Below the pieces are notes generated by a model. It was given only the letters and a program-made list of their open reading frames with translations. It was not told the origin of the DNA and ran no database searches. A stretch of 64,000 nucleotides of DNA from Candidatus Krumholzibacteriota bacterium. GTDB lineage: Bacteria > Krumholzibacteriota > Krumholzibacteriia > Krumholzibacteriales > Krumholzibacteriaceae. A program made the position numbers and the translations under genes. Positions 31,767 through 50,918 of the stretch are shown here, piece by piece (position 1 is the first letter of the stretch; every line of letters begins with the position of its first letter). Location of the stretch: positions 9,653-73,652 of the forward strand of contig DAOUUU010000002.1 of NCBI GenBank assembly GCA_030667985.1, in the 5' to 3' direction.

Positions 31767-32108
31767 ATGAAAAGATCGCTGCTTCTATTTCTCGTGGCTA
31801 CCGTGGCTCTATCGTTCGGATGCGGTAAAAAGGAAGAGGCACAGAAGTCGGATGTGGCCGTCAAGGAAAAGGTCCAGAGTACCAGGAAGGTCATGACGCC
31901 GGGAGAGACCCCGGAGGCGGCGAAGGATGGCACCTCCAGGAAATCGACCGTGGAAAAGGCCATGATCGTCGATGCGGTCACCGGGGAGAAGATCATAAGC
32001 GGGGATATACCCTATTCATATCTATATATGGACAAGACCTACTTCTTCAAGACCGAGGAGAACCTGCTCCTCTTCAAGCAGGATCCCCAGAAATATATAA
32101 TTAAGTAG
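31767..32108 (+). CDS. YHS/TRASH-like domain lipoprotein lacking the metal-binding cysteines
   Basis: Lipobox LSFGCG. C-terminal DAVTGEKI...YMDKTYFFKTEENLLLFKQDPQKYI follows the YHS pattern (DPVCGM...GKTYYFCS...F..NPEKY) with Cys replaced. RBS AGGGAGGA. Confidence 0.45.
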   Translation: MKRSLLLFLVATVALSFGCGKKEEAQKSDVAVKEKVQSTRKVMTPGETPEAAKDGTSRKSTVEKAMIVDAVTGEKIISGDIPYSYLYMDKTYFFKTEENLLLFKQDPQKYIIK

Positions 32109-32176
32109 GAGTGACAAGCCGTTTGCCAGTCGACTGGCTGGGCATTGTACACTCGTATTGTTGATAATGATTTCTT

Positions 32177-32203
32177 ATGCCTCCTCAGGAGGCATTTTTA
32201 TTG
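32177..32203 (+). terminator. rho-independent terminator (perfect 8-bp stem ATGCCTCC/GGAGGCAT, loop TCA, then TTTTTATT)
   Basis: atgcctcctcaggaggcatttttatt is read directly from the sequence, 70 nt downstream of the YHS-like stop. Confidence 0.6.
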
Positions 32204-32555
32204 CGTAAACTTTCTTTTACGCCTTCAGCCCATCTCATGATTTCCTATAGTTCCCTATTGTCGGAAGTTGTTGCTTGATAGTAGATTCCAGGTTTCGTCG
32301 CGTTTTCGGTCGCCGGCCGCTCGATCTGCACACCTGTAACTTCAATCATATCAAGTTCCCTTGGAATGGCCCTTGCCCTGCGTCCACATGAGTCAATGTA
32401 TTTTGAGGTCCCTATATGGAACAGGAGCCTACTCCCTCGTTCCTTATGGACCTGTTTCTGTTGGTGTTCACACACATGACTCCGGGATAGGCACGAAGGG
32501 CTATGTGATTGTCGAATCGGTCGATCCCGGGGGCAATGAGAAGGAGGGTCGTTAG

Positions 32556-33047
32556 ATGAAAAGGAGTCTTTTGGCTGCGGTCCTTGTTCTCGTTCTGACC
32601 GTGTGCGCTTCAGCCGCCTATGGGCAGGGCCCGGAACTGTTCGGCGAGATGAGTGCGCGCAAGATCGTCATGAGCGAGGATAACCGCGAGGTCGCGGTGC
32701 CGGCGGACCAGGTTTTTCCCCTCGACTGCGTCGAGTACACGCTGAGGTATGAAAACACGGGTAGCGCCTCGGCGACGGGAATCAACCTGATAGGTCCGAT
32801 ACCAGATGGCACTGTTTACCTGGACAAGACGGCTACCGGCATCGACGGGGCGGATCCCCTTTTCAGTATCGATGGCGGCAAGACCTACCAGGAAGTCCCC
32901 ATCACCTATACCGTCGTCAATGAGAACGGCGAGGAGGAGGCCAGGGAAGCGACTCCCGACATGATCACCCATGTCCAGTGGCACATGGAAAGCGATCTCG
33001 ATGCCGGGCAGGACGTAGTCGTCTCTTACCGCGTGCAGGTAAAATGA
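32556..33047 (+). CDS. small secreted DUF11 (conserved repeat domain) protein
   Basis: Signal peptide (LVLTVCASAAYGQ) and a single DUF11-like unit (VFPLDCVEYTLRYENTGSASATGINLIGPIPDGTVY). Strong RBS GAAGGAGGG. First gene of a co-directional four-gene locus. Confidence 0.55.
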   Translation: MKRSLLAAVLVLVLTVCASAAYGQGPELFGEMSARKIVMSEDNREVAVPADQVFPLDCVEYTLRYENTGSASATGINLIGPIPDGTVYLDKTATGIDGADPLFSIDGGKTYQEVPITYTVVNENGEEEAREATPDMITHVQWHMESDLDAGQDVVVSYRVQVK

Positions 33048-33111
33048 GCGATCCGGTTCCTTGGTATTTTTGGCCAAATTTTTTAAACCACCAGGAAGAT
33101 GGTGATCTGTA

Positions 33112-35808
33112 ATGATGAAACTTCGTATTTCAGGGCTGGTCGTAGTTGCTCTGATGCTGTCGTTGCTCCTTATAGGCACGACGGCTCAGGCGCAGACACC
33201 GGCCGGCACCACGATCCGGAACCAGGCTTCGGCCACGTTCGAGGATCTGATCGGCAACACCTACACGGCGACGTCGAATGAAGTCACGACCATCGTTCTG
33301 CCCGTGTACGGTCTTTCAATTCTTCCGGATGACTCGGGAGATGACCCACCTTCCGTGCCGGCTTTAACCCAGACGGCGATACCGGGCCAGACCGTATATT
33401 TCAGTTACAACCTGACCAACACCGGTAACGACGCAGATTCCTACACGCTCCTGCCGTTGATTCACGCTGGTACGTCGATGCTTATAGGTCTCGGCGACAT
33501 CACGATCTATCACGATCTGAACGGCAACGGTGTGCTCGACGGCGGCGAGCCCGCGATTTCGGCGGGCGGCGTTCCGGGCAACATCGGCCCGATAGTAGCG
33601 GGTACCACGGTGAACCTCCTGGTCAGCTATCAGGTTCCCGCCGCCGCTGTAGCCGGTATGGTCGCTTATGTCGGCATTGACGGAACGTCCGTCGGCGACG
33701 TTGCGCAGATCGATACGAGGAACTACCACCTGGCGACGGTCGTAAGCGACGCGACGCTCACGGCTGCCAAGACCGGTCTGCCCGCGAATGTCGATCCGGG
33801 CAACACGATTACCTATACGATCAGCGGCGCCAATGTCGGTAACGATGTCGCTCACGGTGTGACACTGACAAGTATCCCGGCTCTCACCGGCGTGCTCGTT
33901 TATGACATCATCCCGACCGATCCTTCGACCGGGTTGCCTCTGGGCGTCACAAGCACGGCGGGCGCTCCAGCGGGCGGCACAGTACTCTATCTGCCCTTCG
34001 GAAGCCCGACAGCCGGTTCGCCCGAGACCTGGGCATGGTCGTCGAGCTCGGCTGCCGGAGATATCGCGGTCGGGTATATCACCAACGGCGATATGGCAGT
34101 CGGCCAGAACTACAGCTTTACGTATGATCTCACCGTGCCCGTGACGATGCTGGCCGGTATCATCAACAACATCGGTAACGTCGCTTTCGTCGACAATAAT
34201 CCCGGTACTCCCGATCCGACGATCGTTGTGACGAACAACACGCAGATAGACGTGAATGTCGTCGCGGCTGTTCTCATCGGTCCGAACGGAGCGCCGGGCG
34301 CTGGAGCGCCTCCAGCGTACAACGACGACGTTCAGGCCGTTCCGCTGGCATACGCCAATACGACGGTCGATTTCATCAATACGGTTCGGAATGACGGTAA
34401 CGCGGCGGACGAGATCAATATTACTCTCGACCCCCTCTCGACCTTCCCGGCCGGTTATACGATCCAGTTCTTCCGCATGGACGGCGTGACACCGCTCGGT
34501 ACGGGCGGGGACGCCATTCCCGATGTCGGAACGGTCAACCCCGGCGCCACGGCGGACTTCATCGTTCGCGTGCAGATACCGAGTGACGCGGCGGCGGGAG
34601 GCCCCTACCAGGCCATAGTTCAGGCGACTTCGGTCAATGACGGGACAGCGTGGAACCTGACGACCGATGAGATCACGGCGGTCAACCCCGCTTCGGTCGA
34701 TATCGGTAACTACGATGGTCTCGCCGGGACGAATAACGGCCTCGTGAACCTGTTCACCGACCCCGGCCTCAACGTCGATTTCCCTCTCGACGTGATCAAT
34801 ACCGGCGGATCGAGCGATACTTACACGCTCAGTTCCCTGTTCGCCGCAGGCTGGTCGGTGACCTTCTATAATGATCTGGACGGCAACGGGGTCCTCGATC
34901 CTCCCGAGCTGGCGCCGATCGGCAACATCGGCCCGGTCATCGCGGGGGACGAAGTGCACGTCATCGCCCGGGTCGCTGTTCCCGCGGGCGAGGTGCCAGG
35001 TGTATTCCCCGTGACCTTCAGGGCAACCTCATCGAACAACCCTGTAATCTTCGACGAGATAGCGAACACAGTGACCGTCAATACGGCCGCGTCCGTTACG
35101 ATCGTTCCCGATCTTAGCGGAACTGGTACGGCCGGCGGCACAATCCGCTATCAGCACACGGTCACGAACACGGGCAACGTCAATGATACGTTTATGCTCA
35201 GCCATGTGAGTTCGAACGGATGGAGCTACGCCTACTTCGATCTCCTGAACAACCCGATCGTTTCGGTCACTCTCAATCCGGGAGTCAGCGAAGATGTCGT
35301 CGTTCAGGTGTCGATTCCCGGCGGTGTGGCTGTCGGAACGGTCGAGACCGGTACGATCACCGTTACCGGTAACGGCACCGGCGCCACTGACAGTGCCATC
35401 GACGTGACGACGATCGTCGCAGGCAACCTCGTTCTCACCAAGTCGGTCAACCCTGTAGGCAATCAGGTTCCGGGTACGGAGCTCACCTACAGGACCGATT
35501 ATGCGAACGTCGGTCTTGCCGGCATCACGACGATCTATATATATGATGCAATCCCGGCCTGGACGCAGTACCGCCACCTCTCCGCGACAACCGGTACGCT
35601 AGCTCCGGGTATCACGGCGATTGCTATCGAGTTCAGTGACAATGGCGGCGCCACATGGGTCTACGGCCCCTCCAGTGGCGGCGGCGGAGCGCCTGCCGGC
35701 TTCGATGCCAACGTGACCAATGTGCGCTGGGTCCTGACCGGCACGCTGGCTGGCGGCGGCGGAACCGCCGACGGCGTTGGATTCATCGTGAGGATCATAG
35801 CCGAATAA
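33112..35808 (+). CDS. large secreted DUF11-repeat cell-surface protein
   Basis: 898 aa with signal peptide and multiple DUF11-type units (YFSYNLTNTGNDADSYTL; TYTISGANVGNDVAHGVTLTSIP; YQHTVTNTGNVNDTFML; LTYRTDYANVGLAGITTIYIYDAIP). Rich in Thr/Gly/Asn. Antisense ORF 33364..34959 is judged spurious. Confidence 0.65.
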   Translation: MMKLRISGLVVVALMLSLLLIGTTAQAQTPAGTTIRNQASATFEDLIGNTYTATSNEVTTIVLPVYGLSILPDDSGDDPPSVPALTQTAIPGQTVYFSYNLTNTGNDADSYTLLPLIHAGTSMLIGLGDITIYHDLNGNGVLDGGEPAISAGGVPGNIGPIVAGTTVNLLVSYQVPAAAVAGMVAYVGIDGTSVGDVAQIDTRNYHLATVVSDATLTAAKTGLPANVDPGNTITYTISGANVGNDVAHGVTLTSIPALTGVLVYDIIPTDPSTGLPLGVTSTAGAPAGGTVLYLPFGSPTAGSPETWAWSSSSAAGDIAVGYITNGDMAVGQNYSFTYDLTVPVTMLAGIINNIGNVAFVDNNPGTPDPTIVVTNNTQIDVNVVAAVLIGPNGAPGAGAPPAYNDDVQAVPLAYANTTVDFINTVRNDGNAADEINITLDPLSTFPAGYTIQFFRMDGVTPLGTGGDAIPDVGTVNPGATADFIVRVQIPSDAAAGGPYQAIVQATSVNDGTAWNLTTDEITAVNPASVDIGNYDGLAGTNNGLVNLFTDPGLNVDFPLDVINTGGSSDTYTLSSLFAAGWSVTFYNDLDGNGVLDPPELAPIGNIGPVIAGDEVHVIARVAVPAGEVPGVFPVTFRATSSNNPVIFDEIANTVTVNTAASVTIVPDLSGTGTAGGTIRYQHTVTNTGNVNDTFMLSHVSSNGWSYAYFDLLNNPIVSVTLNPGVSEDVVVQVSIPGGVAVGTVETGTITVTGNGTGATDSAIDVTTIVAGNLVLTKSVNPVGNQVPGTELTYRTDYANVGLAGITTIYIYDAIPAWTQYRHLSATTGTLAPGITAIAIEFSDNGGATWVYGPSSGGGGAPAGFDANVTNVRWVLTGTLAGGGGTADGVGFIVRIIAE

Positions 35809-36108
35809 CAGACGTAAAGATCTCCGGTTCCGGGGTCCGATTCCCCGGGGCCGGGATCTCGGGTTGGTGATAAGAAGAATTATAAAATGAACTAGAAAGC
35901 ATAAGCTAAACGATTAAGCGAAAATGCTGAATTGGAGGTGGGTTTCCATGGTGAGATCGGCCTCTAATTCAGTTTTAGGAGGAAGGTACGGACGATGCGC
36001 CCGAACGATGACATAACCGGTTGATACGTACTCGGTTAGATGATGTCGCGTTTCGGGTTTTCGTCGTTTTCGAGGCGAGACGTGATTGGAAGGGCAAAAA
36101 TAAGAAGA

Positions 36109-39100
36109 ATGCTGATGCGCCTGTCGGGCAGGCGGGGGCTGGTCTTTTGCTGGATTTTCCTGCGGATCCTGTTCTTTCCGTCGATGGCGGTGGCACAGGT
36201 GCCGCCCGCCGGGCAGACGATCATGAGCCGGTCCATCGCTACGTTCGAGCAGGGCGGTTCCCTGTTGAGCGTCGTTTCGAACGAGGTCTCCCTCGACGTG
36301 CTCGCCCTTTTCGGGCCGGTGCTCCTGCCCGATGGAACGACCTCTGCTCCCGCAAACATCGCCTACGCCTTCAGCGGCGAGCGGGCATCCTTCCCGTACC
36401 GCTTGATCAACACGGCCAACACGGATGATACGTTCGAACTCGCCGTTTCCTATGAGTCCCCATCAGATTTCGTCCCATCGCTTACCGAGATATTTCTCGA
36501 TCTTGACGGAGACAGCCTGATCGATCCGGGGGAACCGCCGGTCACCAGCGTGGGGCCGCTCGGCTCCGGCGAGGAGGTCGCGCTCGTGCTCGCCGCGGAT
36601 CTGCCTGCAGGGCTCACCGGCGGCGAGACGGCACATATCGATCTTGCCGCGCGTTCTGTGGCCGATACATCGCTCGTCGATGGGGGAAACATTGTCCGTA
36701 TCGTCGCGAGGGACGAGGCGCGCGTGGAGCTGACCAAGTCCTCCTCGAGCGCGGCTGTGATGCCGGGGGATGTTATTGCCTTCACCGTCTCCTTCTCGAA
36801 TACGGGGGAGAGGTCAGCGACGAATGTTATCCTGTCCGATCCGATAGACAGCGGCGGCAATACGACCGGAGCTGTCTTTGTCGACGGCAGCGCGGCGGCC
36901 ACACCGCCTGGTATAATCGAGTATTTCGACGAGGCGACTGGATTGTGGGTCGATATCGCTCCTCCTGCCGATCGCGTAAAGGGGGTGCGCCTCCTGCTCG
37001 GCAGTCTCACCGCCGGGGAAACGGGGAGTCTGGATTTCAGCCTCTCGATACCGAACGGCATGCTCGCCGGCACGATCTTTAACACGGCCGCAGCCGGTTT
37101 CACCGGCGGAGACGGTCGTCCCTACTCCCTTCCGTCGAACGAGGTGGCTGTTCAGGTCGGCCGCGTCAGCACTCTATATCTCGGGCCGCCCGGCAATCCC
37201 ACGGCCCCCGAGGGAGGGCCCACGGACAGGAACGTGATTGCGCTCAATGCCGTCGATACCGTCTACACCTTCTGGCATGAGCTCCTGAACGCCGGCAACT
37301 TCACTGATACTCTCCAGATCGGCGTGATCGACTCAACGGTTATACCGGGTGATTGGCAGATGACATTCATCGATACGACGGGGTCGCCCCTAACGCCACT
37401 CACATCCAACAGGGCCAACGCGGGGCCCATTGCCGTCGGCGGGTCGCGAATCGTGGGGCTCAGGATAAGGTCTACCCGGGAAGGCTTCAGGGCTTTCCCC
37501 GGCAGGGAGCTCGCGTTTCTCGTCGAGGCGCGTTCCCTCGTCGACCCGAGCGCCGCCAATACCGTTCAGGATATCTTCGCGAAGACCGACCTGCCCCTGC
37601 TCTCGATCGTCCAGACGATACGCGAGCCGGTGGCGCAGGTCGGCGATGTGTTGAGCTGTGTTGTGACGATCGAGAACATAACCGACGAAACGCTGGTGGA
37701 CAGCGTATTAGTCATCGAGAATCTATCCCCCGGACTCGGCTTCGCGGGTGGAAACGACATACCGGAGATAAGCGGCAACGTTCTCACTTGGAACGCTGGA
37801 AGACTCGAGCCCGGGGAAAAGAAATATTTCGTCTTTCGAGCCAGGGTCAAGGTTGGGCAGGAATGGGACAGGCTTGTGAACAACGCCTGGGTCCACGGCG
37901 TCTCGGAGATCGGAGAGGTGGTTTCCGACGGTCCGGCGCAGGCCTCGATCAAGATCGTCGAGGGGATATTCACCAGGCGCGGGATCATACTGGGAGGCGT
38001 CTTCCTGGACGCCGACGGCGACGGCCTTTGGGGAGAGGAAGAGCGCGGGATACGCGGAGCTTCCATCTTTATCGAGGACGGGACCTACGCGGTGAGTGAT
38101 TCGTCGGGCCTCTATTCGATACCCGGTGTCGAGGAGGGGACGCATGTCGTTCGCATCGATCCCTCGACCCTGCCCGATTCGTTGATTCCGGGTCCGGGAA
38201 GCTACTTCGATCTCGGATCCTCCGAGGGCCGGCTCGTCGTAATGCCCCCCTCCGGAAACCGTACGGTCTATTTCCCTCTCGTTGGGCGCGTCGGTCAGGT
38301 CGCGGCGGTGGATGGATCATCCGCCGGTGTGGAAGGAGAGCGGGACGTTTCGATGAGCGCTATCTCCAGAGAGGCGGCGGGTCAAAGTCTGAACGTACTT
38401 CCCTTTGGAACGATCGCCGGCTCATCAGCGGAGGATTCCGGCAGCGGCCTTTCGGCCGGAACCGATACGACGGAAACTTTCGAGGCGATAACGATTCCCA
38501 GTTCGCACTTCAGGGAGGGGAGTTCCTACCTCGAGGAGATCCCGATCAGCCGGATCGCGGCGTTGAGTCTCTGGATTGGCGAGCATGCCGGCTGGAACGT
38601 TTCCATTTCCGGTTATACGGACAGCATTCCTATCAGCACCTCGGAATTTCCGTCCAACTTCGAGTTGTCGCTCGCCCGGGCCCGCTCGGTCTACCAGCTG
38701 CTCAGGATGAACGGCATACCGGAGGACCGGATGGATTACATGGGCTATGGCTCGAGGATGTCTCTCGCCCCGAACGATACCGAAGCGGGGAGGAAGCTCA
38801 ACGGACGTGTGGAGATCAAGGCCGTGCCGCCGGACGATTATGAGGATGGAAGTCAGGCGCTCGCCGAGTTCCTGAGCCGGCCGGATACTACAACATTCAT
38901 GCTCACCGATGACGCCGGGGTCTGCGCCGATATCATGAGTCCGGAGGAGGGCCGGGTCTTCCACGATCGCGCCGAGATCGATGTCGAGATCACCTCGCCG
39001 CTCGGCTCGCGGATCGAGCTCTACGTGAACAACGTGCCGGTCGGCACAGAGCGCATCGGGCAAAAACAGATAGATATCCGGGGTGGCACACTCGAGTATA

Positions 39101-41916
39101 TCTTCTACGGTGTGCAGATCAAGGAGGGGAAGAACGATATCCTGGTCGTTTGCGACGAGCACGGCGGAAAGAGAAACACATGCGTCCGGCGGGTATATCT
39201 GGCAGGAAGGGTGGCTGGGATCGTGCCCGAGCACGAACTGGTGCAGGCGCCCGCCGACGGCAAGACGAATCCGGAACTCGTGTTCCTCGCGATGGACTCG
39301 AACGGGCTTCCCGTCCGGGACGGTATCTTCGCCACGGTGACAGGCCCAAAGGATCTCATCGATTCGCTCGATGTGAATCCGCACCAACCGGGCATCCAGG
39401 CGGTAACGCGGGAGGGCAGGATATCGCTCAGCCTGCCGCCATCGAGGAATTCGAGGAGGGACAAGATCCGCCTCTCCCTCGATGGATCATCGAGCTCCTG
39501 CATCATGCATTACACATCGCCGCTCAGGGACTGGTTCCTGTTCGGATACGGAGAAGGCACGATCGGTTACGGACAGCTCACCGGAACGGGCACAACTCAC
39601 AGATCCCAGGAGCGCTATCATGACGGCCTCTACGCCGAGGGCAAGATCGCGTTCTACGGCCAGGGGGAGATTGCGGACGGCAACCTGCTGACCGCGGCCG
39701 TGAACACGAGGCCGCTTTACAATGACATGCTATTCAAACGTATCGAGCCGGAGAAGTACTATCCGATATTCGGCGACGCGAGCGAGCTCGAATTCAACGC
39801 CGCGTCGAGGAGCGGGACTTACCTCAGACTGGACCACAGGAGCTACTCGGCTATGCTCGGTGATTTCCAGACCGATCTTGGAGACAAGGAATTCACTCGC
39901 TATCACCGTTCCTTCAACGGCCTGCAGGGGGAGTCGCGTTTCAGCAGGGGGAGCGTCAAGGCCTTCATAACAAATACGGATCAACTTACATATCAGGAAG
40001 AGATACCGGCCGAGGGTGTGAGCGGATTCTACTTTCTCTCCAACTATCCGCTCGTAGAGAACAGCGAGAAGATACGTGTAGAGGTCAGGGACCGTTATCT
40101 GCCCGAGAGGATCCTGCGCGTAGATCACAAACAGACGAACAGGGATTACGATATCAACTACATGGATGGAAGCATTCTTTTCAAGGAGCCGGTGCCGGCC
40201 ACGGACAAGAACCTCAATCCCGTCACTATCGTAGTCAGCTACGAATGCAAGAGCGCAGGAGAAGAGAATTTTATCTACGGGCTCAGATCCTCGGTCGACG
40301 TCACCGACAGCCTCTCGGTGGGAATCACTGCAGTGCTGGAGGAGGAGGGAGTCGAGAATTCCTCGCTCGTCGGTATCGATCTAGAGGGAGCGATCTACAG
40401 AGGGCTCGTCGTGGAGAGCGAATACGCTCACAGCGAGAAATTCCTGTTGGGCGGCGGGGACGCCTTCAGGATCAGGATGAAAAACAGAGGAACGGACGGT
40501 GCCAAGTGGCAGGCCTACTACCGTGAGATCGATAACAATTTTTTCAATCCGTCCTTCTCCGGGGGCAAGACCGAGCTCGGAAGCAAAAAGTACGGCGGGG
40601 AGCTCGATTATCGTATCAGCCAGGCCTTTACACTGAGAGCGGAAGGGTACCGCCACAACCTTCGCGAGAGGGACGAGCAAAGGAGTTTTGCCGGTGTCAT
40701 GGGCAAGTACTACACGAGTATGCTCGACGGCAAGCTCGGTCTGGCGTCCGCTTCTCACAGCGATACGAGGGAGGGGGATCACTCCTCCGTTCTGCTCATG
40801 ACCGGGCTTTCCTTCGACCGCGACCGGACCGCCGCCAGCGTCGAGTGGGATCAGAAGCTAGCCGGCGAGGAGGTCCAGGAGTATCCGAACCGCCTCCAGG
40901 CCAAGCTCTCGAGGCGGCTCTACAAGTACGTGAATGCGGTGCTGCGGCACGAGTACCGCACAGGCAGCAGGACAGGCACGAGGCACGCGACGCAGCTCGG
41001 GCTCGAGTCGAACGTAAGCGAGAACCTTCATCTCTTCTCGCGCTACAGGCTCGAGGGGGCCATGAGCGGCGAGCGCGGTCAGGCGACGATCGGTATGAAA
41101 AACAAGTTCAGGCTCTCTCCCGATCTGACCGCGACTTTCAGCGCCGAGAAGCTCGTGACGGTGAGCGGCTCTGCCATCGACGATTTCCTCGCCTTCAGGA
41201 GCGGGGCGCTCTACACGCCGGTGGGCAAGGATTACCGTCTCAAGGCGGATTACGAGCTGCGCCTAGAAAACGAGAGGCGCAAGCACCTTGCCGGCCTCGC
41301 CGGGATCAAGAGAATGAGCGATCACTGGTCCGCCCTGCTGAAGGGAGACCTCTGGTACAGTGACGAGAAGATAGAGGCGAATAGGATAAAGGGAAGCTCG
41401 ACTCTGGGCTTAAGCCTCCGCCCGCGCGGCCACGGCTCGGTGGCGTTCCTCTCGCTTCTCAGGGCCGATTACGAGAGGAACAGCCAGGCCCATCCGGACG
41501 GGATCGACCGTGAGATCCTGGCGTCGTTCGAGGCGAACTATCCGGTGAACCGGGATTGGGAGCTCGAGGGAAAGATCGCGGGCCGATGGATCGAGAACAC
41601 ATTCGAGTCCTATACGGCCTCTACTTCGACATATCTCTACCAGGGGCAGGTGATCCGGATCCTCGGGAACAGCTGGGATATCTGCCTAGTGGGGCGCATC
41701 GTGCATCAGCACGAGACAAACACGGTAAGGTACGGCGGAGGGGTCGAGCTCGGCAGGCTCATGGCCGAGAACCTCTGGCTCGGGATCGGTTACGATCTCG
41801 GCGGGCACGAGGACGGCGACTCGCCGATCAACGATTTCGCGAGCGAAGGGTTCCACGTTCGTCTGCGGCTCAAGTTCAGCGAACGGCTGCTGGGAGTTTT
41901 CAACGGGATGGAGTGA
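36109..41916 (+). CDS. giant (about 1936 aa) envelope protein: N-terminal DUF11 repeats, SdrD-B/CnaB-like domain, internal OmpA-like peptidoglycan-binding domain, about 1000-aa C-terminal putative beta-barrel
   Basis: Signal peptide (MLMRLSGRRGLVFCWIFLRILFFPSMAVAQ). DUF11 units (VELTKSSSSAAVMPGDVIAFTVSFSNTGERSATNVILSDPI). SdrD-B-like GIILGGVFLDADGDGLWGEEERGIRGASIFIEDGTYAVSDSSGLYSIPGVEEGTHVV. OmpA_C motifs NVSISGYTDSIPI...NFELSLARARSVYQLL...GYGS...NGRVEI. C-terminal third shows the alternating aromatic/hydrophobic strand pattern of OM barrels (...GFHVRLRLKF). The ORF track start at 36040 is also possible. Confidence 0.65.
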   Translation: MLMRLSGRRGLVFCWIFLRILFFPSMAVAQVPPAGQTIMSRSIATFEQGGSLLSVVSNEVSLDVLALFGPVLLPDGTTSAPANIAYAFSGERASFPYRLINTANTDDTFELAVSYESPSDFVPSLTEIFLDLDGDSLIDPGEPPVTSVGPLGSGEEVALVLAADLPAGLTGGETAHIDLAARSVADTSLVDGGNIVRIVARDEARVELTKSSSSAAVMPGDVIAFTVSFSNTGERSATNVILSDPIDSGGNTTGAVFVDGSAAATPPGIIEYFDEATGLWVDIAPPADRVKGVRLLLGSLTAGETGSLDFSLSIPNGMLAGTIFNTAAAGFTGGDGRPYSLPSNEVAVQVGRVSTLYLGPPGNPTAPEGGPTDRNVIALNAVDTVYTFWHELLNAGNFTDTLQIGVIDSTVIPGDWQMTFIDTTGSPLTPLTSNRANAGPIAVGGSRIVGLRIRSTREGFRAFPGRELAFLVEARSLVDPSAANTVQDIFAKTDLPLLSIVQTIREPVAQVGDVLSCVVTIENITDETLVDSVLVIENLSPGLGFAGGNDIPEISGNVLTWNAGRLEPGEKKYFVFRARVKVGQEWDRLVNNAWVHGVSEIGEVVSDGPAQASIKIVEGIFTRRGIILGGVFLDADGDGLWGEEERGIRGASIFIEDGTYAVSDSSGLYSIPGVEEGTHVVRIDPSTLPDSLIPGPGSYFDLGSSEGRLVVMPPSGNRTVYFPLVGRVGQVAAVDGSSAGVEGERDVSMSAISREAAGQSLNVLPFGTIAGSSAEDSGSGLSAGTDTTETFEAITIPSSHFREGSSYLEEIPISRIAALSLWIGEHAGWNVSISGYTDSIPISTSEFPSNFELSLARARSVYQLLRMNGIPEDRMDYMGYGSRMSLAPNDTEAGRKLNGRVEIKAVPPDDYEDGSQALAEFLSRPDTTTFMLTDDAGVCADIMSPEEGRVFHDRAEIDVEITSPLGSRIELYVNNVPVGTERIGQKQIDIRGGTLEYIFYGVQIKEGKNDILVVCDEHGGKRNTCVRRVYLAGRVAGIVPEHELVQAPADGKTNPELVFLAMDSNGLPVRDGIFATVTGPKDLIDSLDVNPHQPGIQAVTREGRISLSLPPSRNSRRDKIRLSLDGSSSSCIMHYTSPLRDWFLFGYGEGTIGYGQLTGTGTTHRSQERYHDGLYAEGKIAFYGQGEIADGNLLTAAVNTRPLYNDMLFKRIEPEKYYPIFGDASELEFNAASRSGTYLRLDHRSYSAMLGDFQTDLGDKEFTRYHRSFNGLQGESRFSRGSVKAFITNTDQLTYQEEIPAEGVSGFYFLSNYPLVENSEKIRVEVRDRYLPERILRVDHKQTNRDYDINYMDGSILFKEPVPATDKNLNPVTIVVSYECKSAGEENFIYGLRSSVDVTDSLSVGITAVLEEEGVENSSLVGIDLEGAIYRGLVVESEYAHSEKFLLGGGDAFRIRMKNRGTDGAKWQAYYREIDNNFFNPSFSGGKTELGSKKYGGELDYRISQAFTLRAEGYRHNLRERDEQRSFAGVMGKYYTSMLDGKLGLASASHSDTREGDHSSVLLMTGLSFDRDRTAASVEWDQKLAGEEVQEYPNRLQAKLSRRLYKYVNAVLRHEYRTGSRTGTRHATQLGLESNVSENLHLFSRYRLEGAMSGERGQATIGMKNKFRLSPDLTATFSAEKLVTVSGSAIDDFLAFRSGALYTPVGKDYRLKADYELRLENERRKHLAGLAGIKRMSDHWSALLKGDLWYSDEKIEANRIKGSSTLGLSLRPRGHGSVAFLSLLRADYERNSQAHPDGIDREILASFEANYPVNRDWELEGKIAGRWIENTFESYTASTSTYLYQGQVIRILGNSWDICLVGRIVHQHETNTVRYGGGVELGRLMAENLWLGIGYDLGGHEDGDSPINDFASEGFHVRLRLKFSERLLGVFNGME

Positions 41917-41941
41917 TCTGTACAGAAGCTCTTCCGGGGTA

Positions 41942-44900
41942 ATGGAGATAGATAGGAGAATGATGACGGTCAGAATCGAAGATAGAGCAATGAGAGTGAA
42001 CCGGTCCGGGCGGTTGGCAGCGCGCGCCGTTTGCCTGGCCCTGTTGTTGATCGTCACGATGTCCGTATCCGCCATCGCTGCAGAACTCGTTATAAATGGC
42101 GGTTTCGAGGCGGGCGATTTCTCGGGCGGTTGGGTCGACGGTGCGGGGAATATAATGAGCAGCCAATTGAATCCGAGCTGGGCCGACCACGCCGTGTTGC
42201 TCGAAATGCCCTGTACGGGCAACTACTCGGCGCTCCTAGGATTCAAGTACGAATTGCCCCAGCGCCACTTCTACGGTTTCATGTACTACGATGTCACGAT
42301 TCCCAATGATATCTCGGCAGCGACGCTCTCGTTCGTGTATCGCCACATGGGATACGATGGTGATGGGCGCGATCCATTCAGCGTCGAGATCAGGGACCTG
42401 GGCGGCGTTACGCTCGAGACGGTCCTTACACACACATTCCCCGAGCGGACAGGTGTCTTCAAGGAGACCGGTTGGCTCTTATTCAGCTATGATATGTCGG
42501 CCTATGTCGGCCAATCGGTCCGTATCTATTTCGAACAGTTGAACAACATCGATAACAACTACGAGACCTGGGTCTATGTCGACGATGTCTCGCTCGAAGT
42601 GGACGGGTGGGTCGATCTTGTAGTGGATGGTGACGGGGACGATATCTTCGGAACTCCGGGCAGTGGAGCTGGCGGTACTTCGGCGCAGAGCACCGAGGTC
42701 GACAGGTCTTTGAGCTATTATATCGATATCGAGAACGAAGGCCCCTCAGACGATTCTTACGATCTCAGCCTGGCGCTGCCTGCCGGTTGGACCGCAGTCG
42801 TAAGATACGGAGGGACCGATTACTCATTCCCTTGGACCACGCCGATAGTTACGGCTGGAAACACGATACAGGCGGAGATCGTCATTACTGTGCCGGCGGG
42901 GGAACCGCCCGGCATGTATACGAGCATACTCGATGCTGTCAGCATCGCCGCCGGGGACCGATACGACAGTGTTTCACTCTTGACCAACGTAGTGCCCGCT
43001 CCCTATCAGCCCGATCTCGCCGTCGACGGCGATGGTATCGGCGTGATAGATCAGGAGGGCGCCGAAGGCGGTTATTCGATCCAGACAGCACTGCCCTCCA
43101 CTACGGTCGACTTCGCGATCGAGCTGGTGAATTTCGGCACGGAGAATGACTCGTTTGTGATATCTTGGGCATCGGAACCGCCGCTCTCCGCCGTCGTTCT
43201 CGACGGGGCGATAGTGCATGCCGCTCCATTCACGAGCGCGGTTATACCTCCGGGTGTTTCCCTCTTCTATACGATACGTGTCACGGTGCCCGCTGGAGTG
43301 CTCGGTGGAGATTACTCGACCGAGCTCTTCGCCCGGTCTACAGGCGACATTCTCAAGTTCGACGGCATCACGGCCGTTACGCGTGTACTCGCCCCCGCCG
43401 TAGATATGCTGATCTGCGGCAGCGGCGACGACATAGTAGATCCGACCGGCTCGGGCCTCGGCGGAAGCTGCACATCGATCGGAGTTCCAGGCGAGATAGT
43501 ATACTTACCCATCGTGCTTCAGAATGAGGGAACCGTACCTGATTCGTTCAGGCTCGCCTGGACGAGGCCGTGGAGTGGATGGACGGCAGTCATCACCGAC
43601 GGCGTGAATACCTATCCGTTTCCCTGGACGACGCCTCTCTTTGCCCAGGGCGAGGAACGGACCTATTTCCTTGCGGTCACAATATCGGACAATGCCGATT
43701 ATACTACCTATCTTTTTCTTCTCGACGCCGTATCGATGACCGACGGCGCGGCGAGCGAGAGCGTTACCGCTTCGGTGACAGTCAGCTCGGTCAACGAGAT
43801 AGATCTATGGATCGACGGCAGCGGCGACGATATCTACGGCCTGCTGGGTTCGGGCCTCGGCGGTTTCTCGACGCTCGCGGGAAGCCCTGGAGAAACGCTC
43901 TTCTTTACGATCACACTCGAGAACGAGAGCGGCACAGATCTCTTCGATCTCTTCTGGACCGCTCCGGCCGGCTGGGAGGTGCTTATCGGCGACTCAACCT
44001 CCTCGATGCGAGGCGTCACATCGGGCACCTATACACTCGAGGTTCGTGTGCCGGCAACTGCCTCGGAGGGCACTTTTCAGGTCATCCTAGACGGACAGAA
44101 GGTGGACAAGCCATACCTAGTCGACAGCGTCAGCGGTAGTATCGTCGTAACGAGGAGCTATATCGTCGATGCGGTCATAGACGGAGACGGTGATGGTATC
44201 TACGGCACACCGGGGCTTGGTGACGGAGGTTTCTCGGCGGGGAGCGCCTTCCCGGGCACACGGATCACATTCTCCCTCGAGCTGCAGAACGATGGGAGCG
44301 AACCAGAGGGCTATACCGTCTCCTGGAACTCGATCGCGGGGTGGACCGCAGCGCTCGATGGGAATAGCTCGCCATACACCACGGTAGTGATACCGGCCGG
44401 AGGCCAGGCGGTTTATTCATTCGATGTAGATGTACCGGTCTCGGCATTGACGGGGGATTACGATTTTATCATCGATGCTGTCTCGACTGTCGATCCGAGC
44501 AATACGGAGAGCGTCACTGCCCGAGTCACGGTCGTGCCCGTTCCTCCAGCATTCATAGCGGTCACGGTCTTCGACGACATCGACCATGACGGTTCATACG
44601 ATCCGGGCGAGCCAGGCCTGGTTGGAGTGACAGTATTGGTGACCGATCCCGGCGGGGATATCACGGGGCTAACAGGAGCGGCAGGAACCTATATCTTCCA
44701 GGTGGACGCCGGCCTGCTGCGTGATGTGATTGAGGCCAATCCTGCCGGCATGTATTCCCTGAGCCCCGATACGGTCTCGGTGCCCGCTGGAGCAGCGGGG
44801 GATACAGCCTGGGTCTACTTCGCGGATGTAATGGGCCCGACGCTAGTTCCGAACAACTTAGCGAACGCGCCGGCCGGTGGATTCGCCGATTTTGCGCACT

Positions 44901-45577
44901 CGATCACGGCCGGCACTACGGGGCAGGCGGTCATCTCCGCCGTGGTTCCCGCCGGATGGGTGGAGAGCTTCTACCGCGACAACAACGGCGACGGACTCCT
45001 GGATCCGGGCGATACGCCTCTCACAGCTGCCGACCTCGATCTCGACCCCGCGGTGCCGGGTCTCGATGTCGTTCCGATCATACTCCATGTTTTCATTCCA
45101 CCCACCGTGCCGGCCGGGACGGTCGAGGCGATCATTGTCACGTTCGATCAGACTTTCCGCGGGACGGTCGTAACGGCGACGGTCTCGGTAATCGATCAGG
45201 TGACGGTGCTCGCATCGGCAAGCGGCCAGCTTCAGCTCGTAAAGGAGGTCGATCTCGCGGCGGCTCAGCCGGGCGGCGTGATTACCTACACTATTATTTT
45301 CTCCAATCCGGGAACGGAGAATGTCCAGGAGATCGAGATCATCGATCCGACCCCCGCCGAAGTCGATATCGTACTGGATGCGTTCGGCCCGGGACAGGAT
45401 ATCGCCTGGGTGAACGGAGCGGTCACGACCTACCTGACTGCCGAACCGGCCGACGCTGACGAGGCGATGTATATCGCTGCGACTAGAACGCTGCACGTTC
45501 TCCTCTCGCGGCAGGCTCCCTTCGCCCTTGCGCCGGGAGAAGAGGGTAGAATCATTTACATGGTGAGGATCCGGTAG
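41942..45577 (+). CDS. large secreted repeat protein: N-terminal CBM/galactose-binding-like domain, five tandem ~130-aa DGDGDD-motif modules, C-terminal DUF11 unit
   Basis: Signal peptide (RLAARAVCLALLLIVTMSVSAIAAE). N-terminal jelly-roll-like ELVINGGFEAGDFSGGWVDG...ETWVYVDDVSLE. Modules VVDGDGDDIFGTPGSGAGGTS / LAVDGDGIGVIDQEGAEGGYS / ICGSGDDIVDPTGSGLGGSC / IDGSGDDIYGLLGSGLGGFS / IDGDGDGIYGTPGLGDGGFS, each followed by (P)AGWTAV and VPAG. C-terminal DUF11 unit VITYTIIFSNPGTENVQEIEIIDPTP. Start could be 41942, 41960 or 41990. Confidence 0.6.
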   Translation: MEIDRRMMTVRIEDRAMRVNRSGRLAARAVCLALLLIVTMSVSAIAAELVINGGFEAGDFSGGWVDGAGNIMSSQLNPSWADHAVLLEMPCTGNYSALLGFKYELPQRHFYGFMYYDVTIPNDISAATLSFVYRHMGYDGDGRDPFSVEIRDLGGVTLETVLTHTFPERTGVFKETGWLLFSYDMSAYVGQSVRIYFEQLNNIDNNYETWVYVDDVSLEVDGWVDLVVDGDGDDIFGTPGSGAGGTSAQSTEVDRSLSYYIDIENEGPSDDSYDLSLALPAGWTAVVRYGGTDYSFPWTTPIVTAGNTIQAEIVITVPAGEPPGMYTSILDAVSIAAGDRYDSVSLLTNVVPAPYQPDLAVDGDGIGVIDQEGAEGGYSIQTALPSTTVDFAIELVNFGTENDSFVISWASEPPLSAVVLDGAIVHAAPFTSAVIPPGVSLFYTIRVTVPAGVLGGDYSTELFARSTGDILKFDGITAVTRVLAPAVDMLICGSGDDIVDPTGSGLGGSCTSIGVPGEIVYLPIVLQNEGTVPDSFRLAWTRPWSGWTAVITDGVNTYPFPWTTPLFAQGEERTYFLAVTISDNADYTTYLFLLDAVSMTDGAASESVTASVTVSSVNEIDLWIDGSGDDIYGLLGSGLGGFSTLAGSPGETLFFTITLENESGTDLFDLFWTAPAGWEVLIGDSTSSMRGVTSGTYTLEVRVPATASEGTFQVILDGQKVDKPYLVDSVSGSIVVTRSYIVDAVIDGDGDGIYGTPGLGDGGFSAGSAFPGTRITFSLELQNDGSEPEGYTVSWNSIAGWTAALDGNSSPYTTVVIPAGGQAVYSFDVDVPVSALTGDYDFIIDAVSTVDPSNTESVTARVTVVPVPPAFIAVTVFDDIDHDGSYDPGEPGLVGVTVLVTDPGGDITGLTGAAGTYIFQVDAGLLRDVIEANPAGMYSLSPDTVSVPAGAAGDTAWVYFADVMGPTLVPNNLANAPAGGFADFAHSITAGTTGQAVISAVVPAGWVESFYRDNNGDGLLDPGDTPLTAADLDLDPAVPGLDVVPIILHVFIPPTVPAGTVEAIIVTFDQTFRGTVVTATVSVIDQVTVLASASGQLQLVKEVDLAAAQPGGVITYTIIFSNPGTENVQEIEIIDPTPAEVDIVLDAFGPGQDIAWVNGAVTTYLTAEPADADEAMYIAATRTLHVLLSRQAPFALAPGEEGRIIYMVRIR
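42600..44560 (+). repeat. five tandem ~390-bp coding repeat modules (protein-level repeats of ~130 aa) within the 41942..45577 gene
   Basis: Module motif starts at about 42622, 43015, 43416, 43807 and 44177. The repeats are conserved at protein level (DGDGDD.fG..GSG.GG) and only loosely at DNA level. Confidence 0.5.
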
Positions 45578-50700: not shown

Positions 50701-50918
50701 GGCGACAGGCGGGAAACGCCAGTTGTACCGGCGACCCAGTGGTATCCCTTCTCCTGGATCCACTTGTTCAGATCGGCGATTCTCTGCTCCTCGCTCTTCT
50801 CGGCGCGGAGCGGAGCCGTCGGCAGAATGATAATGGAAACAAATGCGATCAGGGCGATCGCAAGCGAAAACCGGGCGAACAGTCTCATGGGTTGCCTCTC
50901 TTCAAGAATCAATTTCAA
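47721..50918 (-). CDS. secreted multidomain protein: papain-like C1 cysteine peptidase, right-handed parallel beta-helix repeats, T9SS C-terminal sorting domain
   Basis: Signal peptide. C1A active-site region QGACGSCWAFAGVGQLESH with His region NHGVLIVGWDD. Repetitive NxxGGG beta-helix (PbH1-like) units. C-terminal NFPNPFNGTTTIAYSI...IYDTAGRLIKIL...GIYFCRIKTGSFSQTRKIVYLR matches the Por/T9SS CTD (TIGR04183 type). Confidence 0.75.
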   Translation of the reverse strand: MKLILEERQPMRLFARFSLAIALIAFVSIIILPTAPLRAEKSEEQRIADLNKWIQEKGYHWVAGTTGVSRLSPEEKKMLLGYRPVPKELLDKIPVFEPAVPQLEASMLPLTFDWRDNEGTTPAKAQGACGSCWAFAGVGQLESHVRIYDNRIEDLSEQQAIECNSYGAGCGGGWAYAVYEIFEGYGSIDETCMPYEARDDLPCIEDQCDPIAKISSYGMVSTDIAQIKSSVYYTGPVYTGMTVLDDFFDYTSGCYEHETADPNNHGVLIVGWDDFACAGEGAWIIKNSWGPTWGIEGFGYIKYSAARIGRSNYQISYIPSTVMVRVDSPDGGEVWDVESFQQIQWTTSRETPDSLSIYLSINSGETWDYTIATGLFGVNSYSWTVSDLPVPTARIKVVAYFGGEVAGYDWSDEDFIIKGPPYRFVSPTGGDIHPYSTPFWAAHSIQDAVDASDPGDSIMVAEGVYSETVTAIASLHIMGGWDSGFTVRDPETYESRIQRSGSCVSFMNLGTDYCGIEGMTIANGSGTSLSMPVLGNYGGGIFAYNSSPLIKHNTFVNCGTASIVDFSGGGAIAVYNGHAVIENNMITACKAQVGGGVYLYMATADITGNRITGSYGNFEFIGMRGGGGVYAYHASFTMENNVISGCYDYKYGGAVYTRFSPASLSGDSLYSNSVESSGGAVSAERDTMILSGVVITDNTSGTFGGGIHGKAAYFEIENTIVAKNSAMIGGGIYPDSCFGVITNNTFDRNTAVISGGGMYLQGQGALDMRNNIYSYSSPYGVTVLDLSTHTYLYNNCYGNSPGDYSGPVPDTTNIYRNPHYSDTTSFDYHLLVHSGSIDTGDPDIVYNDPDGSRADQGAFGGPAAIMAALEYVKNSSATAVNDTTIQVIWDEISDPSLAYYVIYGDTTEGFVPDELLMLGTAPVGTESFDHYPVTECWYYRVSAVTTLGLGGGYSSESGDCGNDPVGDEPEVPSYVNRLEQNFPNPFNGTTTIAYSIENKSAVDIRIYDTAGRLIKILEQKTREAGQYETIWRGVDNADRAVASGIYFCRIKTGSFSQTRKIVYLR

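Follow-up and report, generated by a model that had tools for sequence, protein, structure and literature searches.

The window, by which we mean the whole 64,000-nucleotide stretch of DNA that was analyzed, contains four open reading frames between positions 32556 and 45577, all on the + strand, as are the features described below unless stated otherwise. ORF calling and translation placed g1 (163 aa) at 32556..33047, g2 (898 aa) at 33112..35808, g3 at 36040..41916, and g4 (1211 aa) at 41942..45577, with gaps of 64 nt between g1 and g2 and 25 nt between g3 and g4. g3 comprises 1958 aa from its first ATG and 1935 aa from ATG 36109; with the latter start, the g2-g3 gap is 300 nt. This agrees with an earlier sequence-only reading, which had described four co-directional genes here and whose length for g3 matches the start at ATG 36109. 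The ORFs are genuine genes rather than chance ORFs, having homologues at E values down to 0. When the translations were read by eye, all four N-termini showed a hydrophobic signal-peptide-like segment, consistent with the signal peptides assigned to them previously.

The 5′ boundary of the four-gene unit is marked by a terminator-like hairpin with a T-run (32177..32195; 8-pair stem, TTTTATT tail) that closes the upstream neighbor, a YHS-domain protein gene at 31767-32108. The GC content is 0.46 at 32000-32499 versus 0.57-0.64 within the genes, so that both the upstream terminator and the low-GC leader that had been proposed were found. About 180 nt 5′ of g1 lies a candidate sigma-54 (-24/-12) promoter, TGGAAT-N5-CTTGC (32362..32376). 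The related element TGGAA(C/T)-N5-TTGC occurs near the starts of g1 orthologues in 15 other Krumholzibacteriia-type loci, just 5′ of or around the ORF start and mostly 130-190 nt upstream, and two distant operons (L003 and L004) have two-component genes for sigma-54 activators immediately upstream. From this, we infer that the element functions as a sigma-54 promoter. Profile searches of the cluster and its flanks found no chaperone, usher, sortase, signal peptidase, or ATPase genes. The T9SS model Por_Secre_tail had no matches among g1-g4 at E ≤ 0.01 and matched the neighbor at 47721-50918 (- strand) with 37.3 bits, bearing out the earlier statement that the four proteins lack the T9SS C-terminal domain carried by nearby T9SS cargo.

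Each of the four proteins matches models of the DUF11 family, which had been described as largely uncharacterized. That description is outdated: DUF11 now bears the name CLIPPER, and its crystal structure revealed a CnaA-like stalk domain in which an isopeptide bond joins Lys and Asn of the same chain (PMC12617251). The claim that all four carry DUF11-type units thus holds at the level of the CLIPPER family, with g1 falling just short in Pfam itself. g1 consists of a single truncated CLIPPER-like domain and scores 25.9 bits against TIGR01451 (cut-off 24) and 22.4 bits against Pfam DUF11, slightly below the 24.6 cut-off. For g2, which contains several Ig-like domains, the match is to DUF7507/CLIPPER_2 (31.3 bits, cut-off 27), while g3 and g4 match DUF11 with 53.6 and 37.8 bits, respectively. 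At its N-terminus, g4 has a jelly-roll/CBM-like module; it further contains repeated NPCBM_assoc-type Ig domains (NPCBM_assoc was also matched), an SdrD_B-like module, and, at the C-terminus, a truncated CLIPPER domain. The Pfam search suggested earlier therefore returned DUF11 in g3 and g4 and OmpA in g3, with SdrD_B in g4 remaining below threshold (27.5 bits, cut-off 29.7).

In g3, the signal peptide is followed by an N-terminal segment discussed below, Ig-like/CLIPPER domains, an OmpA-like peptidoglycan-binding domain (aa 827-921, 38518..38802; PF00691, 35.4 bits, cut-off 27.2), two Ig-like domains, and a predicted giant outer-membrane β-barrel (aa 1166-1946, 39535..41877), in line with the earlier assignment of a peptidoglycan-binding domain and an outer-membrane barrel to one member. 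The OmpA-like domain also matches MotB-, TssL-, and YiaD-type OmpA models. The predicted barrel has ∼34-36 strands, counted from the DSSP string; it resembles SlpA, matched no Pfam or NCBIfam model, and belongs to a family that forms at least 2,850 clusters when grouped at 50% identity. An all-β insertion in the barrel region (aa 1261-1385, 39820..40194) holds the most conserved motifs of the family, NSEKIRVEVRDR and DYDINYMDGSILFKEPVP, and may be a plug or lid.

The C-termini of g1, g2, and g4 are CLIPPER domains without their last two strands, and mature g2 and g3 each open with a 35-aa segment that shows homology to the missing pair. As a reference, we used the complete, unsplit CLIPPER domain of g3 (aa 224-377, 36709..37170): the acceptors, at the C-termini of g1, g2, and g4, align with its first ∼120 columns only, and the donors, at the N-termini of g2 and g3, fall on the remaining ∼35. 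The g2 acceptor spans aa 770-898 (35419..35805) and ends ...GFIVRIIAE; that of g4 spans aa 1096-1211 (45227..45574) and ends ...GRIIYMVRIR. The donor segments are QTPAGTTIRNQASATFEDLIGNTYTATSNEVTTIVLPVYG in g2 (aa 28-66, 33193..33309) and QVPPAGQTIMSRSIATFEQGGSLLSVVSNEVSLDVLAL in g3 (aa 53-90, 36196..36309), with 38% and 33% identity, respectively, to the tail of the internal g3 domain; g1 has no such segment. In a conservation scan of g2, the 39-aa donor window ranked second of 833, and the top window shares 38 aa with it; the donor is thus the most conserved part of the protein.

Head and tail HMMs built from internal complete domains only gave the same picture. The head HMM (first 115 positions of complete domains) matched g4 over positions 5-115 and stopped at its last residue (E 5e-6), and the tail HMM matched g2 at aa 34-62 (E 0.006). 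Across homologues, the head precedes the tail at 26 of 27 internal sites and at 2 of 34 N-terminal sites, 28 of the latter being in donor-acceptor proteins. At acceptor ends, 130 of 151 matches stop 0-4 residues from the C-terminus, where the HMM is complete within one position. Joining donor to acceptor had modest and mixed effects on the DUF11 score: for g1, addition of the g2 donor lifted it from 23.1 to 27.3 bits, and for the g2 acceptor, addition of its own donor lowered it from 16.2 to 12.7 bits. A profile of acceptor-donor chimeras retrieved no PDB entries. Single-sequence AlphaFold2 prediction of a g4-acceptor plus g2-donor chimera, for which no alignment was used, reached a pLDDT of 52.5, too low for a usable model, and a Foldseek search with it yielded no significant matches. 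Since the operon encodes the acceptor-only g1 and g4 and the donor-only g3, complementation would have to occur in trans, although for g2 self-complementation in cis is conceivable.

The split also appears to divide the known CLIPPER triad: the Asp stays with the truncated domain and the Asn lies on the N-terminal segment. In the crystal structure 9IFR, the bond links Lys715 and Asn806, with an Asp nearby (PMC12617251); an approximate consensus query aligned weakly (E 0.4) to 9ifr_A places the triad in the itK, tDtLP, and tNtA motifs. The acceptors of g2 and g4 hold the Lys in LVLTK and LQLVK and the Asp in IYIYDAIP and IEIIDPTP, respectively, and the candidate isopeptide Asn of the g2 donor lies within IRNQA. 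g1 has Gly at the position expected for the catalytic Asp, and Ser replaces the Asn in the g3 donor; across loci, barrel-protein donors have Ser in 21 cases and Asn in 12. Among g2-type (donor-acceptor) proteins, the donor Asn and the acceptor Asp are each present in 41/41, counts that are not independent events because most informative loci come from one candidate phylum. The Lys in the first acceptor strand (L.L.K motif) is found in close relatives with Krumholzibacteriota-type proteins, its placement being unreliable for distant donor-acceptor proteins. In a two-gene form from Geomonas/Citrifermentans, His replaces the Asn of the sole donor, and the Asp position of the sole acceptor is occupied by Ser, Thr, Ala, or Glu.

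Sixty-six loci had enough upstream sequence to be informative about gene order. At least one acceptor-ended protein precedes the barrel gene in 61 of them, and 35 have the full order of small acceptor, donor-acceptor, and donor-barrel, in many cases with an acceptor tip gene downstream. The order is kept from close relatives (∼60% identity) to barrels at 26-33% identity in other phyla, with carriers including Krumholzibacteriota, Nitrospiraceae, Geobacterales, Oligosphaera, Opitutaceae, Brocadiia, and Rhodocyclaceae. Synteny in relatives had been named as a check on the sequence-only reading; the conserved order and co-inheritance uphold its view of a dedicated multi-protein surface system over isolated adhesins. 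The four could instead be unconnected monomers, either fibrillar adhesins or envelope proteins, with nothing in common but their domains. Each N-terminal motif would then pack on the next domain of its own chain, the C-terminal domains would be stable seven-stranded sandwiches, and g3 would be an OmpA-type tether or a porin like Deinococcus SlpA or OmpM. We consider this distinctly improbable, as it leaves unexplained the strand boundary shared by three C-termini, the presence of the absent strands at two N-termini, the fixed order in which acceptor-only and donor-only proteins are found together across phyla, and the division of the triad between termini.

The organizing principle that escaped the earlier reading is these three truncated CLIPPER ends and two starts with missing strands. 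They predict a head-to-tail fiber and allow a role to be assigned to each gene. We thus propose, with somewhat better than even confidence, that the locus encodes a chaperone-free surface fiber in which donor-strand complementation completes a split CLIPPER domain; we found no account of a comparable system from Gram-negative bacteria in the literature. Following Sec export, g1, g2, and g4 would present their incomplete C-terminal domains, and g2 and g3 would expose the missing two strands as an N-terminal hairpin. With a lectin-like N-terminus and no donor, g4 is a candidate tip adhesin at the distal end; g2, carrying both donor and acceptor, is a candidate shaft pilin that would polymerize head to tail; and g3 would form the base, its donor inserted into the last g2. 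Two parts of g3 would anchor the fiber, the giant barrel in the outer membrane and the OmpA-like domain on peptidoglycan; the barrel, whose internal insertion is conserved, may double as a pore for subunit exit from the periplasm. Because the donor and Ig-like domains of g3 lie N-terminal to the presumably periplasmic OmpA domain, they would thread through the barrel, or the fiber joint would be periplasmic. g1 could act as a minimal cap or as a holder of free donor hairpins. Trans complementation, subunit order, the covalent bond, barrel export, and surface location are what we infer from the sequences.

The fiber is probably isopeptide-locked. With Lys and Asp in the g2 and g4 acceptors and Asn in the g2 donor, we predict that a Lys-Asn isopeptide bond forms spontaneously between the subunits at g2-g2 and g2-g4 joints and locks them, whereas the joints of g1, which lacks the Asp, and of the g3 donor, which lacks the Asn, are taken as noncovalent. 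An unlikely but serious alternative is that the architecture is the same and all joints are noncovalent, like those of chaperone-usher pili, the Lys, Asp, and Asn being structural leftovers of the CLIPPER fold. The triad is dispensable in whole lineages, as seen in the Ser of the Krumholzibacteriota-type g3 donor, the Gly of g1, and the His paired with Ser or Thr in Geomonas, and the covalent bond here is a sequence-based prediction. Against this stand the invariance of Asn and Asp in donor-acceptor proteins, the donor being the best-conserved segment of g2, and the bond formed by the equivalent three positions, by weak alignment, in the solved CLIPPER domain (PMC12617251).

Another possibility weighed against the linear fiber was that g3 anchors a sheath or a surface layer extending in two dimensions. 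The likeness of the barrel to SlpA, the proposal that DUF11 proteins are archaeal S-layer components (PMC12617251; PMC10787695), and a weak similarity of g2 to the putative S-layer protein model NF033506 (20.5 bits, far under the cut-off of 110) point that way, but one donor and one acceptor per subunit at most would give linear chains rather than a lattice, the lectin-like N-terminus of g4 suits a tip, and no lattice-forming features were found. We regard a layer as very improbable, and the sheath suggested earlier drew no support from our analysis.

The proposed fiber shares features with several known systems. Like chaperone-usher pili (type 1/P: FimH/PapG tip, FimA/PapA shaft, FimD/PapC usher), it would have a two-part, lectin-domain tip adhesin without a donor and a basal outer-membrane barrel with an internal insertion, and would assemble from a periplasm without an ATP source. 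Sortase-assembled Gram-positive pili are likewise covalent polymers whose multi-domain Ig-like pilins comprise tip, shaft, and base subunits, but here a sortase gene and LPXTG motif are absent and the linkage is predicted to be autocatalytic, inside the reconstituted domain. In BsaA (TasA family) of Clostridium perfringens, "donor-strand exchange and lock" ends in a bond involving an Asn-Glu-Lys triad (PMC11580942), and in the Sulfolobus thread, Asn57 is linked to the N-terminal amine of subunit n+2 (PMC9715654). Both insert an N-terminal donor strand into a neighbor and then form a sortase-free intermolecular isopeptide bond, as proposed here; their folds (TasA/camelysin and thread subunit) are not CLIPPER, however, and their monoderm or archaeal hosts have no outer-membrane component. 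CLIPPER stalk domains of fibrillar adhesins (DUF11, PF01345; 9IFR; PMC12617251) share the family and the Lys/Asp/Asn positions, but those described hold the triad in one chain and form an intramolecular bond, whereas here the Asn-bearing strands are absent from the terminal domains and are found at the start of a different protein. Deinococcus SlpA and Negativicutes OmpM bind the wall by an SLH domain and coiled coil instead of an OmpA-like domain, and have no CLIPPER domains, donor segment, or companion subunit genes. Finally, isopeptag/pilin-C, SpyTag/SpyCatcher, and SnoopTag/SnoopCatcher are laboratory-made splits of Gram-positive pilin or adhesin domains, in which a terminal strand with one reactive residue is split off, rebuilds the domain, and then bonds covalently. 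If our proposal is true, the g2 and g4 joints would be a natural counterpart of isopeptag/pilin-C and SpyTag/SpyCatcher, in which the split serves subunit polymerization.

The four co-directional ORFs proposed by the sequence-only reading are present as described on the + strand: g1 (32556-33047, 163 aa), g2 (33112-35808, 898 aa), g3 (36040-41916, 1958 aa, or 1935 aa if the start is the ATG at 36109), and g4 (41942-45577, 1211 aa). As read from the sequence, each opens with a signal-peptide-like hydrophobic segment. The start of g3 is ambiguous (36040-36115): the ATG codons at 36040, 36109, and 36115 give products of 1958, 1935, and 1933 aa, a more typical signal peptide follows from 36109 or 36115 than from 36040, and the first 23 codons may be untranslated. 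Housekeeping genes flank the cluster, with phosphofructokinase and a YHS-domain protein on the 5′ side and a DegT aminotransferase and a cation-efflux protein on the 3′ side. Pfam and NCBIfam profile searches found no chaperone, usher, sortase, signal peptidase, or ATPase in the cluster. A T9SS C-terminal domain had been said to be missing, and indeed no match to Por_Secre_tail or CHU_C was obtained in g1-g4 at E ≤ 0.01; the positive control was a secreted 1,065-aa papain-family (Peptidase_C1) protease at 47721-50918 (− strand) that contains a beta-helix region and whose T9SS Por_Secre_tail scores 37.3 bits. This protease confirms that the host exports other cargo through T9SS.

Upstream of g1, GC drops to 0.46 in the leader that follows a terminator-like hairpin (32177-32195). 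We sought a riboswitch in this leader, and a scan of the whole window returned no Rfam matches. The leader also holds a candidate sigma-54-type −24/−12 element, TGGAA(C/T)-N5-TTGC, at 32362-32376 (+ strand). Among the related loci from other genomes that we compared with the window (designated L002, L003, and so on), such an element is found near the start of the g1 orthologue in L008, L009, L011-L013, L015, L016, L019, L020, L022-L025, L038, and L040, making 16 loci with the window, mostly 130-190 nt before the ORF. In the distant operons L003 and L004, a sigma-54 activator two-component system lies directly upstream. Since the relaxed pattern occurs at chance frequency across the window, the sigma-54 case rests on the conserved position.

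DUF11-type units had been noted in all four proteins, and profile signal was recovered in each when PF01345, PF24346, and TIGR01451 were applied with their curated thresholds. The scores were 53.6 bits against DUF11 for g3, 37.8 bits against DUF11 and 50.3 bits against TIGR01451 for g4, and 31.3 bits against DUF7507/CLIPPER_2 (cut-off 27) for g2, while g1 reached 25.9 bits with TIGR01451 (cut-off 24) and 22.4 bits with Pfam DUF11, just under the 24.6 cut-off. Annotation on related contigs shows that CLIPPER is the newer Pfam label of PF01345. The earlier description of DUF11 as largely uncharacterised is out of date, since both the structure and the internal bond of a CLIPPER domain have been published (9IFR, PMC12617251). 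That domain is a nine-strand CnaA-like sandwich in which Lys715 on the first strand is joined to Asn806 near the end by an isopeptide bond, with an Asp nearby, and the bond confers heat and protease resistance (PMC12617251). The bonds treated there are intramolecular only, in monomeric stalks (PMC12617251).

As judged from sequence, the terminal domains of g1, g2, and g4 are not complete sandwiches with Lys, Asp, and Asn in one chain; they break off ahead of the strands that bear the Asn. Their C-termini halt after the same CLIPPER-like strand (...VSYRVQVK, ...GFIVRIIAE, and ...IIYMVRIR, respectively). We refer to such a domain, which lacks its last two strands, as an acceptor, and to an N-terminal segment homologous to those strands as a donor. 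Mature g2 begins with TPAGTTIRNQASATFEDLIGNTYTATSNEVTTIV and mature g3 with PPAGQTIMSRSIATFEQGGSLLSVVSNEVSLDV, and g3 also has a complete, ordinary CLIPPER domain at aa 224-377 with the tail GTIFNTAAAGFTGGDGRPYSLPSNEVAVQVG. All strands are present in this internal domain; its Lys and Asp are not conserved among orthologues. When aligned to the complete domain, the terminal domains of g1, g2, and g4 span only its first ∼120 columns, and the N-terminal peptides match the ∼35 columns that remain, with identities of 38% for g2 and 33% for g3.

To guard against circularity, we built "head" and "tail" HMMs from nothing but the complete domains inside g3 orthologues and ran them against every plus-strand ORF (1,612 in all) of the window and 84 related loci. 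The tail HMM gave 27 internal matches, and a head lies immediately before 26 of these. A further 34 matches of the tail HMM fell within the first 110 residues of proteins, where a head came before only two, and in 28 of these 34 the same protein ended in a truncated C-terminal domain. In the window, g2 aa 34-62 matched the tail HMM with an E value of 0.006, and g4 aa 1096-1211 matched positions 5-115 of the 115-position head HMM, the match ending at the last residue of the protein. With family-specific acceptor HMMs, 130 of 151 matches finished 0-4 residues from the end of the protein and left at most one position of the HMM uncovered. Among g2 orthologues, conservation is highest in the donor (mean pairwise identity 0.78 vs 0.66 mid-protein); its 39-aa window ranks second of 833 in conservation, and the top window shares 38 aa with it. 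Scoring acceptor-donor chimeras with Pfam gave small, inconsistent gains, and neither phmmer of a chimera nor an HMM of 12 chimeras reached 9IFR in the PDB. An AlphaFold2 model of the g4-acceptor/g2-donor chimera, made without an alignment, had a pLDDT of 52.5 and was discarded as evidence; a Foldseek search of the PDB with it returned no significant matches, the top ones being potassium-channel domains.

We then located the isopeptide residues by aligning a hand-written DUF11 consensus to chain 9ifr_A; this alignment, weak (E 0.4) and end to end, was used solely to locate the three triad residues and places Lys715 in "itK", the Asp in "tDtLP", and Asn806 in "tNtA". If index 10 of the chain corresponds to Lys715 and index 101 to Asn806, the Asp in LND counts as 749, one residue off the "Asp-748" of PMC12617251, which leaves the argument unaffected. 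The corresponding motifs are LVLTK and IYIYDAIP in the g2 acceptor, LQLVK and IEIIDPTP in the g4 acceptor, and IRNQA in the g2 donor. Across loci, in counts drawn largely from related genomes and hence not independent events, donor-acceptor proteins have the donor Asn in 41/41 and the acceptor Asp in 41/41, both Lys and Asp occur in 40 of the 56 tip-type (g4-like) proteins, the Asp position is Gly in most g1-type proteins, and barrel-protein (g3-type) donors in this phylum carry Ser at the Asn position (21 of 37). The L.L.K lysine is found in Krumholzibacteriota-type donor-acceptor sequences. Between g1 and the g3 donor, Gly pairs with Ser in 17 loci and Asp with Asn in four, a pattern that is phylogenetically clustered and has exceptions; we speculate from this co-variation that the g3 donor might be the partner of g1.

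The OmpA-like peptidoglycan-binding domain expected in one member is found in g3 at aa 827-921 (PF00691, 35.4 bits vs a 27.2 cut-off), and MotB-, TssL-, and YiaD-type NCBIfam domains match the same residues. A search with the region that follows, aa 940-1958, found close relatives among MAGs of Krumholzibacteria, Latescibacteria, and Eisenbacteria and, across many further groups, relatives that align over the full length with 22-34% identity; none of the relatives found has a Pfam annotation over this region. AlphaFold2 with a 30-sequence alignment modeled this region at a mean pLDDT of 80 as a pair of Ig-like domains and, after them, a single very large all-beta barrel, predicted to have ∼34-36 strands as counted on the DSSP string. 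In L003 (7394-13315), L005 (8998-14743), and L024, gene calls divide the g3 orthologue into a donor/CLIPPER/OmpA gene and a barrel gene, and g4 is likewise split in L005; these calls reflect either gene fission or assembly frameshifts. In L002 (1-13354), a stand-alone 1,117-aa barrel comes right after a SpaA_4/CLIPPER protein of 4,187 aa that does not end in a truncated acceptor, and from this case some members of the barrel family may serve one giant adhesin and not a multi-subunit fibre.

A genome scan for barrel relatives, with one genome per species and a 9-sequence alignment as query, found them encoded in at least 554 stretches. Among 66 loci with enough upstream sequence, 35 have a small acceptor, a donor-acceptor protein, and the barrel protein, and in 24 of these 35 a large acceptor-ended protein is also present downstream. 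The remaining loci have a donor-acceptor and barrel protein (3/66), an acceptor-only and barrel protein (23/66), or the barrel protein alone (5/66). The full gene order occurs in Krumholzibacteriota and a Latescibacteria-labelled MAG (L003/L065), in Nitrospiraceae, Desulfobulbaceae, Geobacteraceae, Opitutaceae, and Rhodocyclaceae, and in Oligosphaera ethanolica DSM 24202 and GCA_947496225.1; a Brocadiia locus (L073) encodes an acceptor, a donor-only protein, a barrel, and a tip. The genes therefore stay together in relatives, and the flanking PFK, YHS, and DegT genes are common to the window and its close relatives. Source records label the carriers of L006, L036, and the protein record P0010 as Patescibacteria, Micrarchaeota, or Bathyarchaeia; on a diderm outer-membrane system, such labels are probably binning or labelling errors.

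A reduced two-gene form was observed in L046-L059, L062, L063, L066, and L068 (Geomonas, Citrifermentans bremense, and Geomesophilobacter). It consists of an acceptor-only protein of ∼435-500 aa and a donor-barrel protein of ∼1,900 aa. The sole donor of the Geomonas/Citrifermentans form has His for Asn (LTPSGTVI.H.F), and the sole acceptor has Ser, Thr, Ala, or Glu for Asp. In L046 and L068, the pair is followed by a gene of ∼405 aa and by genes for a histidine kinase and a response regulator.

Because the operon contains acceptor-only (g1 and g4), donor-acceptor (g2), and donor-only (g3) proteins, completion would be possible only in trans and would give a linear chain. In such a chain, g4 would be the tip; its N-terminus has a jelly-roll/CBM-like module, with InhA-like MAM and choice-of-anchor J matches below threshold. 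The shaft would be g2, polymerising head to tail, and g3 would be the last subunit, its barrel fixed in the outer membrane and its OmpA domain on peptidoglycan. Joints would lock covalently where Lys and Asp meet Asn, as happens in cis in 9IFR, and subunits may be exported through the g3 barrel, the size of which could let folded Ig domains pass. Possible roles for the small g1 are those of a cap, a minimal tip, or a holder of unpaired donors. We judge this overall model, a donor-strand-complemented fibre built from a split CLIPPER domain and a fused anchor-barrel subunit, to be slightly favored by the sequences. While the observations of the sequence-only reading stood, its interpretation as a dedicated surface fibril or sheath was borne out in part and was open to considerable sharpening. 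More tentatively, and at somewhat less than even confidence, the system may be an unrecognised, widespread class of Gram-negative pilus that dispenses with sortase and chaperone, using a split CLIPPER domain with an autocatalytic intermolecular Lys-Asn lock and one protein as terminator, wall anchor, and giant-barrel pore. Specialists might, with substantial probability, count it as a new pilus class. We found no prior account in the full-text literature searched, which leaves out most subscription journals, so that an earlier description is possible.

To our knowledge, few pilus assembly pathways of diderms have been described, namely chaperone-usher, type IV, curli, type V, and conjugative. 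If the model is true, there would be a further diderm pathway yielding covalently linked fibres without chaperone, sortase, or ATPase, and a natural use of the split-and-ligate principle engineered into SpyTag-like tools, possibly a source of new orthogonal tag/catcher pairs. A barrel family now without annotation, with at least 2,850 sequence clusters, would also acquire a function, and roles that can be tested would follow for thousands of proteins labelled "DUF11 domain-containing" or "OmpA family" in environmental phyla (Krumholzibacteriota, Nitrospirota, Geobacterales, the PVC group, and Marinimicrobia, among others). Since there are cultured carriers (Geomonas spp., Citrifermentans bremense, and Oligosphaera ethanolica), the system is directly testable.

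Lastly, we compared the cluster with known systems. Sortase-dependent pili do not fit: there is no sortase gene in or beside the cluster and no LPXTG-type sorting signal, the chains ending right after a beta-strand (...RVQVK, ...VRIIAE, and ...MVRIR). For TasA/BsaA fibres, the cluster and flanks gave no Peptidase_M73/TasA or SipW matches, and the N-terminal SLH domain with large C-terminal barrel of an SlpA/OmpM-type tether is not found. Pfam likewise returned no matches to the 12-strand autotransporter or intimin barrels of classical and inverse autotransporters (type V secretion), and the predicted g3 barrel is ∼3 times their size. The proposed organization resembles that of chaperone-usher pili, in which the tip adhesin is donor-less, the shaft subunit has both donor and acceptor, and a terminator sits at the usher. 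Those pili are built from incomplete Ig folds with N-terminal donor extensions; at the sequence level, an analogous layout is seen here in a different fold family, with truncated domains, putative N-terminal donors, and a candidate tip that has no donor. Unlike in those pili, no PapD-like periplasmic chaperone gene is detected by Pfam or NCBIfam in g1-g4 or the flanking genes, there is no usher-family protein (PF00577, a 24-strand barrel with plug), and the barrel protein would itself serve as a subunit. "Exchange and lock" has precedents in BsaA of Clostridium perfringens (PMC11580942) and in Sulfolobus threads (PMC9715654). The nearest systems in the literature searched are archaeal tafi (PMC11821415) and pili described from Candidate Phyla Radiation bacteria (10.64898/2026.03.03.709456), which use donor-strand exchange with other folds and no outer-membrane component.
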